Part shown: positions 8,462 through 18,739 of the stretch, piece by piece
Layout: every line of letters starts with the position of its first letter
Position numbering within the stretch: position 1 is the first letter of the stretch
Source of the DNA: a virus
Taxonomy: Duplodnaviria; Heunggongvirae; Uroviricota; Caudoviricetes
Direction: 5' to 3' (one strand)
Length of the DNA stretch: 64,000 nt
Virus record (IMG/VR): IMGVR_UViG_3300023174_000034
Translations under genes and position numbers: made by a program
The notes under the pieces: model-generated
What the model was told of the DNA's origin: nothing
The model's input: only the letters and a program-made list of their open reading frames with translations
Databases searched by the model: none

Positions 8462-8785
8462 ATGGCAAATCCAAAGTGGCTCGAAAAGTATTTTCGCATG
8501 AAGCCCGAAGTTACACAGATCTATGACGATCTGGAAAAATTCAAACAATTCTGCGTGGATCACGGCAGATTGTTCAACGAGGCCGCATTGTACAACGAAC
8601 GAGATCGTGACTACTTTGACTTCCTGAGATTCAAGGAACGTGGCTATGCAAAGAACGCATGGAACTGGGCACACAAAGACCCCAATGAAGTACGCAAGCC
8701 GTACACAGGTCCACGTCGCGAAGGCGGTGGTGGCTACAAAGGCAACAACTATCGCCCAGGCGGAGGCTACAACCGCAATGCGTAA
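8462..8785 (+). CDS. hypothetical protein with Gly/Tyr/Arg-rich C-terminal tail
   Basis: SD AAGGAG; C-terminus GGGGYKGNNYRPGGGYNRNA. Confidence 0.6.
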   Translation: MANPKWLEKYFRMKPEVTQIYDDLEKFKQFCVDHGRLFNEAALYNERDRDYFDFLRFKERGYAKNAWNWAHKDPNEVRKPYTGPRREGGGGYKGNNYRPGGGYNRNA

Positions 8786-9968
8786 GCTATACTACATGGG
8801 CTTGGAGTCTTACAAGGCTCGTTATACTCTGCAACTCACAGAGTGGAACAAGCGTGTGTTTGATGCACGTGGACTAGATGTTGTCTACGTGCCAGGCTTG
8901 ACACTAGACAACAGTCAGCAGATTGTTGTGGGTCAAGTGCTAGACGCACACGGTCGCAGTTACTTTGGTATGAGTCAGATGATGAATCTGGTTCGTATGA
9001 TGCAACAAGGTGAAGTAACCGCAGATGATGTGATCTACTTTGAAGACATGTTCCAGCCCGGCTTTGAAAGTCTTGGCTACATCATCAACCAAGTTCCTGA
9101 AGAACTGCGCCCACGCATCTTTGTGCGCTGTCTAGCACAGGCCATTGATCCAGATGACTTTGTTCATGTATGGGGCATGGGCAAGTGGATGATGGACTAT
9201 GAACGCATGGTCAATGACATTGTGACCACTTCCGGTGGTGCTGTGTTAGCTACCAACGAAGAGATGGTCATGCACATGAAGGTAGCAGGTTGGACTGCTC
9301 CTATCTACAACATCTCCGGCTTGGCATTCGGCAAGAGCGAAGTACGTGAACGTGTGCCGGGTGAGCTCAAGCCATTTGACAAACGAGCATTCCGTGTGGG
9401 TTTTGCCGCACGTTGGGATCAAGAGAAACAACCAGACTTTTACATGGACTTGATTGAACTGTGGGCAGAGCGTCATCCAGGTGAACGTTTGGAGTTTGCA
9501 CTGTTCAGTGGTGCTAAACTAAAAAGCAACAACGACAGCTACATGGCTCGTACAAGAGATCTCGAAGCACGTGGCTTGCTCACAATCTATGAAGACCTAG
9601 AAAAGAACGATTACTATGCTCTCGTTAATGATACTCGTGTGCTTTTTAATTGTGCGTTACAAGACTGGGTGTCTAACACTGTCAGCGAAGCAGATACTTT
9701 GGGCTGTAATGTTCTCTATCCTGCTTACCGTAGTTTTCCTGAAAGTTTTAGTAATGACCACACCAGGCTCTACATCCCTTGGAGCCTAGAGGATGCTATT
9801 ACCAAGTTGGAAAAGTTGATTCGCAAGCCACATGCTAATCAAGGCCGGATCTCAGACTGGACCAATGGCACAGTTGATCGTATTGTGGACATCCTTGAAG
9901 GCAAAGGCGAATCTTGGTTGCGTATGAGCACAGACTACCGTAAGCACACTCACGAAAGCAAGTTCTAA
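8778..9968 (+). CDS. GT-B fold glycosyltransferase
   Basis: C-terminal GT4-like features FAARWDQEKQP, QDWVSNTVSEA..LGC, YP.YRSFPE; start at ATG 8778. Confidence 0.8.
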   Translation: MRKLYYMGLESYKARYTLQLTEWNKRVFDARGLDVVYVPGLTLDNSQQIVVGQVLDAHGRSYFGMSQMMNLVRMMQQGEVTADDVIYFEDMFQPGFESLGYIINQVPEELRPRIFVRCLAQAIDPDDFVHVWGMGKWMMDYERMVNDIVTTSGGAVLATNEEMVMHMKVAGWTAPIYNISGLAFGKSEVRERVPGELKPFDKRAFRVGFAARWDQEKQPDFYMDLIELWAERHPGERLEFALFSGAKLKSNNDSYMARTRDLEARGLLTIYEDLEKNDYYALVNDTRVLFNCALQDWVSNTVSEADTLGCNVLYPAYRSFPESFSNDHTRLYIPWSLEDAITKLEKLIRKPHANQGRISDWTNGTVDRIVDILEGKGESWLRMSTDYRKHTHESKF

Positions 9969-10225
9969 TGTTTGACCAAGATCAATACCAAAATTTTGAT
10001 CTTGGTCTTTGGACCCGGGTGCTCAATGAAGAATTACCATGGCTGGGCCAAGGAAGACCAATAAGCGTTTTTCAAGCGGCTGAAATCTATCAACGCACGG
10101 TGGTAGCCTGGGGTGAGGGTCGCACACACTATGCTCAGGATGGCGTGGGTGGTGCAGTAGACTTGACAAAACTCTACGAACAATGTAAACTAGTATCATT
10201 ACTGAAACTTAAACAGGAGAATTAA
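9968..10225 (+). CDS. hypothetical protein
   Basis: 85-aa ORF, TAATG-coupled. Confidence 0.5.
   Translation: MFDQDQYQNFDLGLWTRVLNEELPWLGQGRPISVFQAAEIYQRTVVAWGEGRTHYAQDGVGGAVDLTKLYEQCKLVSLLKLKQEN
10163..10191 (+). promoter_or_regulatory. sigma70-type promoter
   Basis: TTGACA-17 nt-TAAACT upstream of the YccA-like gene. Confidence 0.5.
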
Positions 10226-10226
10226 C

Positions 10227-16930: not shown

Positions 16931-17476
16931 ATGGCACGTAGATTTAGCACAAAAACTTATGGTAACGAACGTGGTCTAAGCTGTACCTTTCGACAACATG
17001 CCGCAACGCATAGTCATTGCAGTCTGTTACATGGATACAGTTTAGGTTTCAAATTTGTGTTCGAAGCAGAACAACTTGATGCACGTAACTGGGTACAAGA
17101 CTTTGGCGGCCTAGGTGAGCTCAAAGAGTTCCTTGAAAAAACATTTGATCATACCACTATTGTTGCAGAAGACGATCCACTAATCAAGCATTTCCAGAAG
17201 ATGGCTGGCTGGAGTGCAGTCAAAGACATGCATGGCAAGCCTGAAGAAGTTCAAGGCCACCCTGTAGGCAACAAGGGTGTGATCAAACTGATCACAATGC
17301 CTGCTGTGGGTTGCGAAGCGTTTGCTGAGTATGTGTGGCGCTGGACTGATCAATGGTTAAAAGAAGATCCAACCAACAAGTATCAAAACTTGTTGGGAGA
17401 TGACATGCAACGTGTCAAGATTCTAACAGTTGAAGTGTTTGAGCACGGTAGCAATTCAGCAATCTACGAAGGGTAA
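16931..17476 (+). CDS. queD: 6-carboxy-5,6,7,8-tetrahydropterin synthase, copy 2
   Basis: CSLLHGYS, DFGGL, FDH, GCEAFA, VEVFEH; SD GGAG at 16921. Confidence 0.8.
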   Translation: MARRFSTKTYGNERGLSCTFRQHAATHSHCSLLHGYSLGFKFVFEAEQLDARNWVQDFGGLGELKEFLEKTFDHTTIVAEDDPLIKHFQKMAGWSAVKDMHGKPEEVQGHPVGNKGVIKLITMPAVGCEAFAEYVWRWTDQWLKEDPTNKYQNLLGDDMQRVKILTVEVFEHGSNSAIYEG

Positions 17477-17477
17477 T

Positions 17478-17879
17478 ATGCAACAACAAATCTTTGAACA
17501 TCTCCCAGAAACGATTGAAGAAAGCGAAGCACCTTGGAATGACAGCGTAAGGCAGGATTTCCATGTTGCAGTATTTCGTGACAAGTACCCGTGTACACCA
17601 GGACATCTACTGTTTGTACCCAAGTACAATGCTGTGGGTGTGCTCAAGGATGCATTTGAGGATGCATTCAATTATGGAAAAGAGAAAGTAGATGATGGAG
17701 AATGGGACGGTTTCAACATTGGACTTAATTATGGCCAGGCTGCGGGACAGACTGTGTCTTGGCCTCATATACATCTTATTCCCCGTAAAACGGGCGACGT
17801 CGAGGATCCTGTGGGCGGTGTACGACACACGATTCCGGGCAAGGGTAATTATAGAAAGGCACCAGAGGGAACATGGTAA
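17478..17879 (+). CDS. HIT-family nucleotide hydrolase
   Basis: DKYPCTPGHLLFVPK, GFNIGLNYG..AGQTV.WPHIHLIPR. Confidence 0.85.
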   Translation: MQQQIFEHLPETIEESEAPWNDSVRQDFHVAVFRDKYPCTPGHLLFVPKYNAVGVLKDAFEDAFNYGKEKVDDGEWDGFNIGLNYGQAAGQTVSWPHIHLIPRKTGDVEDPVGGVRHTIPGKGNYRKAPEGTW

Positions 17880-18739
17880 TAATAACAGGTGATCGCGGCC
17901 TGATTGGCAGCGAACTCAAGGCTCGGCTACTAGCACAAGGCATCCGAGTCCACTCACTAGACTGGAGTGATCGTGGTAAAACATACACCTTGGAAGAGCC
18001 GCTGGAGTGGATTTTCCACATGGGTGCTATCAGCGAAACTATTGCCAGTGACTGGCAAGAGTTGGTCAAGAAGAATATCGAAGACACGCAGAACTGGATT
18101 CAGTTTGCACAACAAAACAACTGCGGCATTACCTACGCAAGTTCAGCAAGCCTATACGGCACTTGGTCAAACAGTCCAGAATGGGGGCCGGTACAACCCA
18201 TGCACATGTATGGGGTGAGCAAGCTGGCAGTGGACAACTGGTGTGCCACACAACAATTCACAGTACCAGTACAAGGTGTGCGTTTCTTCAATGTGTACGG
18301 ACGCAACGAAGGGCACAAACAACAACCAAGTCCCATACGCCGTTACATTGAACAAGGTATTGTGCAACGCAAGCTAACAGTATTCCAGCATGAAGGTAGA
18401 CTAGGCTCACGTGACTTCATAAGTATAGATGACTGTATAAATGCCATGCTTCGTCTAAAGGACGCAGGTGTAAGCGGTGTATACAACGTTGGCACAGGTG
18501 TGCAACTGACATTCAAAGATATTGCAGAATCAATACAAAAACGATTTGGTGTTGAAAATGTACAGGTACTTGTTGTGCCCATGCCTGATCATATGGTCAA
18601 AACATATCAGTGGGAAAGTCAAGCAAACTTAAATAAACTCAAAGCCGCCATTGGCGAGTGGAATCCACTTTCGGTTGATGACTGGCTTGAAGAAAATTTT
18701 GAAACTCTATATAATAAGATACAGAAGGAAATATTATGA
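17873..18739 (+). CDS. NAD-dependent epimerase, ADP-heptose 6-epimerase (HldD)-like
   Basis: TGDRGLIG, IFHMGAISET, YASSASLYG, YGVSK, RFFNVYG.NEGHK, SRDFI. Confidence 0.8.
   Translation: MVIITGDRGLIGSELKARLLAQGIRVHSLDWSDRGKTYTLEEPLEWIFHMGAISETIASDWQELVKKNIEDTQNWIQFAQQNNCGITYASSASLYGTWSNSPEWGPVQPMHMYGVSKLAVDNWCATQQFTVPVQGVRFFNVYGRNEGHKQQPSPIRRYIEQGIVQRKLTVFQHEGRLGSRDFISIDDCINAMLRLKDAGVSGVYNVGTGVQLTFKDIAESIQKRFGVENVQVLVVPMPDHMVKTYQWESQANLNKLKAAIGEWNPLSVDDWLEENFETLYNKIQKEIL

Follow-up and report, generated by a model that had tools for sequence, protein, structure and literature searches.

What does a glycosyltransferase do inside a gene cluster for a deazaguanine DNA base? The question is raised by a 64,000-nucleotide stretch of the IMG/VR virus record IMGVR_UViG_3300023174_000034 (Caudoviricetes), hereafter called the window, in which the gene of a GT-B glycosyltransferase (GT; 8778-9968) is embedded in a 7-deazaguanine module and followed by several sugar and nucleotide enzymes. 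Judged from sequence comparison, the GT is a real, conserved member of the module, and comparative genomics gives good support for a sugar step that is tied to this pathway. The reading put forward here, at slightly less than an even chance, is that the DNA of this phage carries a two-tier modification, in which a deazaguanine is inserted by a DpdA-like enzyme and a sugar is attached by the GT before or after the insertion.

A 7-deazaguanine module without QueC

The region 5417-19629 is a QueC-less 7-deazaguanine DNA module, composed of a DpdA-like transglycosylase, a DpdL-family protein, FolE, two QueD paralogs and QueE, all encoded on the plus strand. For comparison, 80 related IMG/VR loci were collected, with GTs 72-96% identical to that of the window and representing 67 distinct alleles; upstream counts given below refer to the 55 loci with at least 5 kb of upstream sequence, and downstream counts to the 29 loci with at least 9 kb downstream. 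The GTP cyclohydrolase I FolE (12953-13696) matches PF01227 (1.1e-37) and is found in 29 of the 29 loci with a full downstream flank. The QueD paralogs 1 (16372-16878) and 2 (16919-17476) match PF01242 at 3e-14 and 4e-13, respectively, and both carry a CxxxHGY motif, whereas the 7-carboxy-7-deazaguanine synthase QueE (18736-19629) is recognised by phrog_2076 (2.4e-53), with the NCBIfam QueE models matching its N-terminus.

The gene at 8010-8450 encodes a T-fold protein of the DpdL family, the proposed decarboxylase of 7-carboxy-7-deazaguanine (CDG), and is present in all 55 related loci. Its LANPHRHIF sequence corresponds to the LxxxHRHxF signature that stands in place of the CxxxHGH motif of QueD and that has been used to define DpdL (Cui et al. 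2023, PMC10516641). In a tblastn search of the whole phage collection the protein is 35% identical to CGPG_00067 of the Cellulophaga phage phiST (E 4e-9); it is likewise 60% identical to ASD50405 of phage ACP17 (E 3e-39) and matches the PA5oct group, and the homology is returned by the reciprocal search (E 9e-15). No QueC was found by Pfam scans in the 64-kb window, nor above the cut-off in three near-complete relatives of 374, 321 and 333 kb. With FolE, QueD, QueE, DpdL and a DpdA-like protein present and QueC absent, the cluster therefore appears to be a QueC-less module of the DpdL type, as in phiST.

The transglycosylase itself had been overlooked in an earlier, sequence-only reading of this DNA, which had otherwise identified the deazaguanine genes. 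It is a 531-residue protein (5417-7012) of the tRNA-guanine transglycosylase (TGT) fold and a putative DNA guanine transglycosylase, assigned from its motifs, its AlphaFold2 model and its relatives in PA5oct and ACP17. The DSGGFQI, VLQG, HxLGTS and SFDCA motifs are invariant among 32 homologs, including D107-SGGFQ and F304-D305-C306, and D107 and D305 are presumably the counterparts of D102 and D280 in the Zymomonas mobilis TGT. The model has a pLDDT of 85.6, its top 50 Foldseek matches are all tRNA-guanine transglycosylases (E 1e-6, TM 0.40/0.55), and in the Atlas a TGT cluster lies near the protein (0.93). No match was found in Pfam, and a profile search of the family against PDB sequences was empty. 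The protein is 36% identical to EST35_0316 of PA5oct, and its family aligns with ASD50403 of ACP17 (hhalign E 4e-4). A homolog of the phiST DpdA3 was not found in the window by either tblastn or hhalign, the hhalign comparison of the family profile of the 5417-7012 protein with phiST CGPG_00065 giving E 0.12 and a probability of 0.5%; by sequence, the protein groups with the PA5oct and ACP17 type and is not recognisably DpdA3. The GT-like protein at 8778-9968 was also considered as the missing DpdA and is ruled out by its fold.

The DpdL-linked glycosyltransferase

The GT gene (8778-9968, plus strand) lies two genes after dpdL and encodes a 396-residue protein, which is assigned as a GT4-like GT-B enzyme from its AlphaFold2 fold, the Pfam matches of its homologs and its conserved residues, in agreement with the call made from the sequence alone. 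The protein itself has no match in Pfam (E 0.01), in NCBIfam or among PDB sequences. Its metagenomic homologs are, on the other hand, numerous (7990 scored, in 735 clusters at 50% identity), and of 56 diverse homologs 40 match PF00534 (Glycos_transf_1) and 29 match PF13692. The model, built on these 56 homologs, reaches a pLDDT of 95.1 and consists of the two Rossmann domains of the GT-B fold, with Foldseek matches at E 1e-12 to 1e-9 to MshA (8.5e-13), BshA, PimA and glycogen synthase. By VIA-align, about 30 GT4-type enzymes are matched at Z 21-27, among them sucrose-phosphate synthase (26.9) and BshA (25.5), and the pterin glucosyltransferase 5zer, a Synechococcus UDP-glucose:tetrahydrobiopterin enzyme, is matched at Z 23.5.

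In the alignment of the homologs R212, E216 and K217 are invariant, while D296 and E304, which lie 8 residues apart, are nearly so. R212/K217 are probably the R/K pair that binds the diphosphate in GT4 enzymes, and D296/E304 probably their (E/D)x7E motif; on this reading the enzyme looks active, as far as its sequence can tell. A particular closeness to the DNA glucosyltransferases of T-even phages, which the sequence-only reading had cited as GT-B enzymes acting on a modified base, is not supported: the T4 alpha-glucosyltransferase (1y6f) is a single match among many GT-B structures, ranking 25th with Z 21.0 behind some 24 GT4 enzymes, and the search of the GT sequence against PDB sequences matched neither the alpha- nor the beta-glucosyltransferase of T4. 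The QTMAN_N domain (PF12038) was likewise not matched in the 56 family members at E 0.01, nor at E <=1 in the whole records of five relatives, although a remote homology beyond the reach of HMMER is possible.

Linkage of the glycosyltransferase to the deazaguanine genes

Both the DpdL gene and the DpdA-like gene lie near the GT in 55 of the 55 related loci, and the gap between DpdL and the GT in related loci has a median of 435 nt. A GT unlinked to dpdA in relatives had been named beforehand as the observation that would speak against a two-tier modification, and the opposite is thus observed. The linkage extends well beyond close relatives, as FolE, DpdL and the GT occur together, in either order, in all of the 12 distant IMG/VR loci that were found with a distant family member and whose GTs are 30-35% identical to that of the window; with one further distant GT query (P0245) no viral contig was found. 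Among cultured phages, the GT adjoins DpdL in seven lineages, namely the PA5oct group, ACP17, Phosso, X1, BUDD, BCSR5 and BUCT-ZZ01, the hosts in whose names are Pseudomonas (PA5oct), Acidovorax (ACP17), Sinorhizobium (Phosso), Xanthomonas (X1 and BUDD), Burkholderia (BCSR5) and Synechococcus (BUCT-ZZ01), and it is the gene immediately after the DpdA-like one in ACP17 and PA5oct. A linkage to DpdL, DpdA and FolE that recurs across such deep divergence is more than would be expected by chance; for the other sugar genes this holds only in part, as their share of the related loci ranges from a minority to two thirds.

The association appears to run in one direction only. DpdL without the GT is found in the phiST group, in RHph_I1_18, in the Vibrio phages Bakedbeans and D479 and in the Aeromonas phage Ahp1, altogether in about half of the DpdL lineages, whereas the only GT-like matches without DpdL come from Xanthomonas and Erwinia phages, form a group at 25% identity and evidently represent another GT4 subfamily. 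A GT that occurs only with DpdL, and a DpdL that sometimes occurs without the GT, is the pattern expected of an added second step. In this divergent group, as at 3747-6981 of the Xanthomonas phage PhiXhv-15 (L101), the GT4 gene stands beside genes for GlmS and a BshB-like deacetylase, and no DpdL match was found in these Xanthomonas and Erwinia jumbo phage records; the genes make up a phage sugar pathway of their own.

Accessory sugar and nucleotide genes

The placement of the sugar genes that had first drawn attention to the locus is borne out, in that GalE directly precedes folE, a cytidylyltransferase-type gene precedes queD and an HldD-like epimerase gene overlaps queE, all on the plus strand. 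The UDP-glucose 4-epimerase GalE (11895-12902) scores 314.9 bits on TIGR01179, above the cut-off of 262.3, and ends 50 nt before FolE. The small nucleotidyltransferase, which starts at 15719 or 15794 and ends at 16285, 86 nt before QueD1, matches PF01467 of the cytidylyl/adenylyl-transferase superfamily and has an intact HxGH motif (TFDLLHAGH); its best NCBIfam matches, the RfaE domain II model TIGR02199 (65.9 against 181.5 bits) and the TagD model TIGR01518 (50 against 165.4), are below the cut-offs, and by sequence only the superfamily membership holds, not an identity with HldE domain II or TagD. The HldD-like enzyme (17873-18739), an extended short-chain dehydrogenase/reductase (SDR) that overlaps QueE by 4 nt, retains YxxxK and the Ser, has a shortened N-terminal domain and scores 179 bits on TIGR02197, below the cut-off of 274.6, so that it does not qualify as an HldD equivalog. 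GmhA, GmhB and a heptose kinase were not found in the window by Pfam scans.

Further genes of the same strand are interspersed with these. A HIT-family nucleotide hydrolase/transferase (17478-17879; PF01230, 1e-8) carries a PHIHLIP motif, and a cupin-like protein (14476-14946) matches phrog_4786 (2.8e-37), annotated in PHROG as cysteine dioxygenase. A Gpt-like type I purine phosphoribosyltransferase (PRT; 15232-15792; PF00156, 1e-15) has the phosphoribosyl pyrophosphate (PRPP) motif ILIVDDINDSGRT, and its best NCBIfam match, xanthine PRT, is below the cut-off; a Gpt-like PRT is also found, independently, inside the cluster of the Synechococcus phage BUCT-ZZ01 (L001, 15093-15554). Most simply, the PRT would recycle the guanine freed by base exchange to GMP and then to GTP for FolE. 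At 40% identity or more, GalE is present in 19 of the 29 loci, the PRT in 13, the nucleotidyltransferase in 12-13, the cupin in 10, HIT in 8 and the HldD-like enzyme in 2. Two observations speak for a link of such genes to the modification. The nucleotidyltransferase and PRT genes keep their places among folE, queD and queE in both of two clades that differ in gene order. Pfam scans of near-complete relatives, moreover, bring up the DpdL-linked GT as the sole or almost the sole GT, and 1-3 SDRs acting on nucleoside diphosphate (NDP) sugars are encoded; NDP-sugars made by the phage would consequently have few phage-encoded users.

Two variable inserts separate the GT from GalE, a Bax1-I/YccA-type membrane protein (10227-10922, plus strand; PF01027, 1.7e-52; 8 of 81 loci) and an acidic protein of about 325 residues (10903-11898, plus strand; 17 of 81 loci). 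The latter, which was also considered as the GT, has no Rossmann-fold pattern and no Pfam or PDB match. A second nucleotide-sugar set, which is not adjoined by any GT, lies 18 kb away at 37489-40419 and consists of a 4,6-dehydratase-like SDR, a DegT aminotransferase of the PseC/ArnB kind and an oxidoreductase resembling UDP-GlcNAc 3-dehydrogenase. This set is the end of a plus-strand row at 35831-40419 that begins with dihydrofolate reductase and thymidylate synthase, which it follows directly. Both the inserts and the separate second set weaken the link of the accessory genes to the modification, as does the fact that host glycosyltransferases could use their products. The accessory sugar genes thus belong to the module weakly, as lineage-specific donor suppliers at most, a role that is plausible for GalE in this lineage.

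Gene order and genome setting

The window comes from an uncultured phage of a jumbo lineage, as its near-complete IMG/VR relatives are 320-374 kb in size; among cultured phages, megablast found nothing that matched positions 8000-20000. The first 40.4 kb or so, beginning with the gene of a family B DNA polymerase (449-3109), form a co-directional row on the plus strand, which is followed by ORFs of virion-protein size on the minus strand. The gene order is polB, a clamp-like gene, the DpdA-like gene, DpdL and the GT, QueE and RNase H. Neighbouring genes at 8462-19629 mostly overlap or abut, many of them with overlaps of 4-8 nt, and the row is broken by three short gaps (12902-12953, 16285-16372 and 16878-16919). 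The best sigma-70-like sites of the region are in the gaps before folE (12883-12952, with a promoter-like site at 12883-12911 upstream of FolE) and before queD1 (16286-16371). Terminator-like sites in the gene row are not above chance, and positions 4000-21000 have no match in Rfam at E <=1, with no recognisable preQ1 riboswitch in the gaps preceding folE and queD1.

Three small plus-strand genes lie around DpdL and the GT. A conserved protein of 171 residues (7498-8013), whose stop overlaps the start of DpdL, occurs in 31 of the 55 related loci and carries the motifs HIYFGAN and KLDDKDFxATNPGVWCH; it has no match in Pfam, PHROG, PDB or the Atlas, and a profile search against PDB sequences was likewise empty. 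Its homolog in ACP17, ASD50402, is located between FolE and the DpdA-like gene, and the protein is possibly one more component of the module that has so far escaped recognition. A 107-residue ORF (8462-8785; 39 of 55 loci) lies between DpdL and the GT and overlaps the start of the latter, and an 85-residue ORF (9968-10225) is found in few relatives; no family was found for either.

Elsewhere in the window, a MoxR-type AAA ATPase and a DUF2201 metallopeptidase-like/VWA protein are encoded at 30496-32984 on the plus strand. On the minus strand, seven ORFs that encode 359-459 residues each stand in tandem at 40379-49217, five of which match radical SAM enzymes, three of these five with an N-terminal SPASM domain; the one at 45229-46539 scores 411 bits on NF033640, an N-terminal-twitch radical SAM family. 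Relatives of the GT with 62-73% identity are also found on contigs binned to metagenome-assembled genomes of Haliscomenobacter, Chitinophagales, Phycisphaerae and Syntrophomonadaceae (L097-L100), which are probably mis-binned phage contigs and provide a weak hint of the host at most.

Comparison with known systems

A closely related known module is that of phiST, in which FolE, QueD, QueE, DpdL and DpdA3 are encoded and 2'-deoxy-7-deazaguanosine (dDG) replaces all deoxyguanosine (PMC10516641). The two systems share a QueC-less pathway to CDG, an LxxxHRHxF T-fold protein and a TGT-fold gene in a cluster next to the DNA polymerase. In contrast to the window, however, phiST has no homolog of the GT and its measured base is plain dDG, while the window adds the GT, GalE, PRT, nucleotidyltransferase, HIT and SDR genes, and the 531-residue transglycosylase is of the PA5oct/ACP17 type and not DpdA3. 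That a phage with DpdL and without the GT has plain dDG fits a role of the GT as an added second step.

The Pseudomonas jumbo phage PA5oct (Wroclawvirus) shares the arrangement of the window, with polB, a clamp-like gene, the DpdA-like gene, the GT and DpdL, QueE and RNase H, although the GT there precedes DpdL. Besides the similarity of the DpdA-like proteins given above, the clamp-like proteins are 33% identical and the GTs are homologous (E 7e-12). ACP17 shares the module order and likewise has a homologous GT (E 1e-10). Unlike the window, the annotated clusters of ACP17 and PA5oct list none of GalE, the nucleotidyltransferase, HIT, the HldD-like enzyme or the PRT. The DNA of PA5oct resists cleavage at G-containing restriction sites and behaves as G-modified (PMC12191111).

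Among glycosyltransferases with a known acceptor, several offer partial parallels. The alpha- and beta-glucosyltransferases of T4 place the sugar on hydroxymethylcytosine (hmC) after its incorporation into DNA. They are similarly phage GT-B enzymes encoded beside base-modification genes and acting in the second of two tiers, but they have no sequence similarity to the GT described here, which is structurally nearest to GT4 enzymes acting on small molecules and polysaccharides (Z 23-27), and here the sugar would go to a purine analogue that lacks a hydroxymethyl group. QTMAN and QTGAL, which glycosylate the cyclopentenediol of queuosine in tRNA, also act on a 7-deazaguanine derivative, yet their target is tRNA, and QTMAN_N was not detected in the GT family. 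A natural-product precedent is provided by HuiG of the huimycin pathway, a GT that glycosylates a 7-deazaguanine-type base, with N2 as the sugar site in huimycin and dapiramicin (bioRxiv 10.64898/2026.04.15.718813); the resemblance lies in a GT acting on a 7-deazaguanine derivative and the difference in its acceptor, a free O-methylated preQ0 base and not DNA. Eight deazaguanine DNA bases, none of them glycosylated, were listed by Cui et al. in 2023 (PMC10516641), and in the literature searched no glycosylated deazaguanine in DNA was found.

Proposed pathway and its alternatives

On the gene identities, folds, conserved motifs and synteny established here, a pathway can be proposed, the chemistry of which is predicted throughout, as are the atom that accepts the sugar, the identity of the sugar and the functions of the accessory genes. 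FolE, the two QueD paralogs and QueE would convert GTP to CDG, the DpdL-family protein would decarboxylate CDG to 7-deazaguanine, and the divergent DpdA-like transglycosylase would exchange guanine in DNA for 7-deazaguanine. The GT would most likely use an NDP-sugar to glycosylate the deazaguanine, either once it is in DNA or while it is still a free base. In this lineage the donor would be supplied or reshaped by GalE, possibly together with the nucleotidyltransferase, HIT and the HldD-like enzyme. The excised guanine would be returned by the PRT to GMP, and from there to GTP, the substrate of FolE.

Several points weigh against such a pathway. 7-Deazaguanine has no hydroxyl group, and the sugar would have to be attached at N2, O6 or a ring carbon, or on a hypothetical hydroxylated intermediate. 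The fold of the GT is equally near to small-molecule GT4 enzymes, the pterin GT and the T4 alpha-glucosyltransferase, so the acceptor is not readable from the structure. A fusion of the GT with DpdL or DpdA was not found among the GT homologs of 694-2000 residues, and the extra part of one 655-residue homolog is a low-complexity tail. Within the family, the set of accessory sugar genes differs among the 29 loci, and the window copies of GalE, the nucleotidyltransferase, HIT, the HldD-like enzyme and the PRT have no match in the 12 distant loci; the suggestion that the whole sugar toolkit belongs to the modification is thereby not upheld. Finally, the heterologous expression of DpdL failed (PMC10516641). 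Of the two-tier modification proposed in the sequence-only reading, the part that ties the GT to the deazaguanine module stands by synteny, whereas a base in DNA as the acceptor of the sugar is a matter of inference.

The tight adjacency of DpdL and the GT would also be explained if the GT belonged to the module but the final base in DNA were free of sugar. The GT may in that case glycosylate a free intermediate, which could be a pterin (derivatives of 6-carboxytetrahydropterin, CPH4, or of dihydroneopterin triphosphate, H2NTP), CDG or 7-deazaguanine, the sugar serving as a transient carrier, solubiliser or protector, or it may be a non-catalytic partner of DpdL or DpdA. The structural match to 5zer is in line with a pterin acceptor, as that enzyme acts downstream of FolE and pyruvoyltetrahydropterin synthase (PTPS), although it is one of about 30 matches at Z 20-27. 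A need for the GT in making the base itself would also agree with the outcome of expressing dpdL and dpdA of ACP17 in Escherichia coli, which gave no dDG and led the authors to suggest that other enzymes may be needed (PMC10516641); phiST, however, makes dDG without a GT. A purely structural partner is unlikely given the invariant donor-binding residues, and a sugar-free final base is altogether regarded as unlikely. The sugar enzymes, and possibly the GT with them, might instead serve the glycosylation of the host surface, the capsule or the virion, and lie beside the que genes only through the packing of early and middle metabolic genes. The patchy occurrence of GalE, the nucleotidyltransferase, HIT and the HldD-like SDR, their lack of matches in the distant loci, the unrelated inserts between the GT and GalE and the separate sugar set at 37489-40419 are all what this would predict. 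It accounts poorly for a GT that stays linked to DpdL and FolE at 30% identity and in seven cultured lineages with different hosts, for complete relatives with hardly any other GT to use the phage NDP-sugars, and for nucleotidyltransferase and PRT genes that are still found among folE, queD and queE when the gene order differs between two clades; such a function is therefore rather improbable for the GT, and more probable for the accessory genes than for the GT.

A very improbable alternative is a pre-replicative route akin to that of tubercidin, in which the PRT would join CDG or 7-deazaguanine to PRPP and the resulting nucleotide would be processed by the nucleotidyltransferase and HIT, after which the phage PolB would build it into DNA or it would be set free as a nucleoside antimetabolite. 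Tubercidin clusters do use CDG and a PF00156 PRT without QueC, and a PRT is present inside the cluster here, in 13 of the 29 related loci and in BUCT-ZZ01. Yet the PRT is optional, whereas the DpdA-like gene is universal (55 of 55), the recycling of guanine is a simpler explanation of the PRT, and Pfam scans of the window found no UbiD decarboxylase, GMP reductase, kinase or HAD/Nudix partner; of the full tubercidin-type pathway, in which a CDG core is joined by a PRT, UbiD, GMP reductase and a phosphatase, the PRT is present and UbiD, GMP reductase and a HAD/Nudix partner were not found. The two-tier modification, with deazaguanine insertion by the DpdA-like enzyme and glycosylation by the GT, is thus preferred here. 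In its wider form, for phages with a DpdL-linked GT in general, it is possible, with the balance tipped somewhat against it, that their DNA holds glycosylated 7-deazaguanine, the sugar of which would in the present lineage be tailored by GalE, the nucleotidyltransferase and the SDRs.

Significance

To our knowledge, the known DNA glycosylations are all on pyrimidines, namely hmC and hydroxymethyluracil (hmU), and a glycosylated deazaguanine, if true, would be the first case of a genome with a purine analogue that bears a sugar. What is new here is a DpdL-type deazaguanine system with a conserved glycosyltransferase, for which a sugar-bearing base is predicted, as a supported but unproven possibility. 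A requirement for the GT may also explain why the reconstitution of DpdL and DpdA in E. coli failed. The prediction is open to direct test on the cultured phages PA5oct, ACP17, BUCT-ZZ01, Phosso and Xanthomonas X1. As the GT is fixed in DpdL-type modules of this kind, in hundreds of environmental and several cultured phages, it predicts a new class of hypermodified purines, which would bear on the sequencing and cloning of such DNA, on the evasion of restriction and CRISPR by these phages, and on modification-dependent defences, among which END nucleases already restrict PA5oct.

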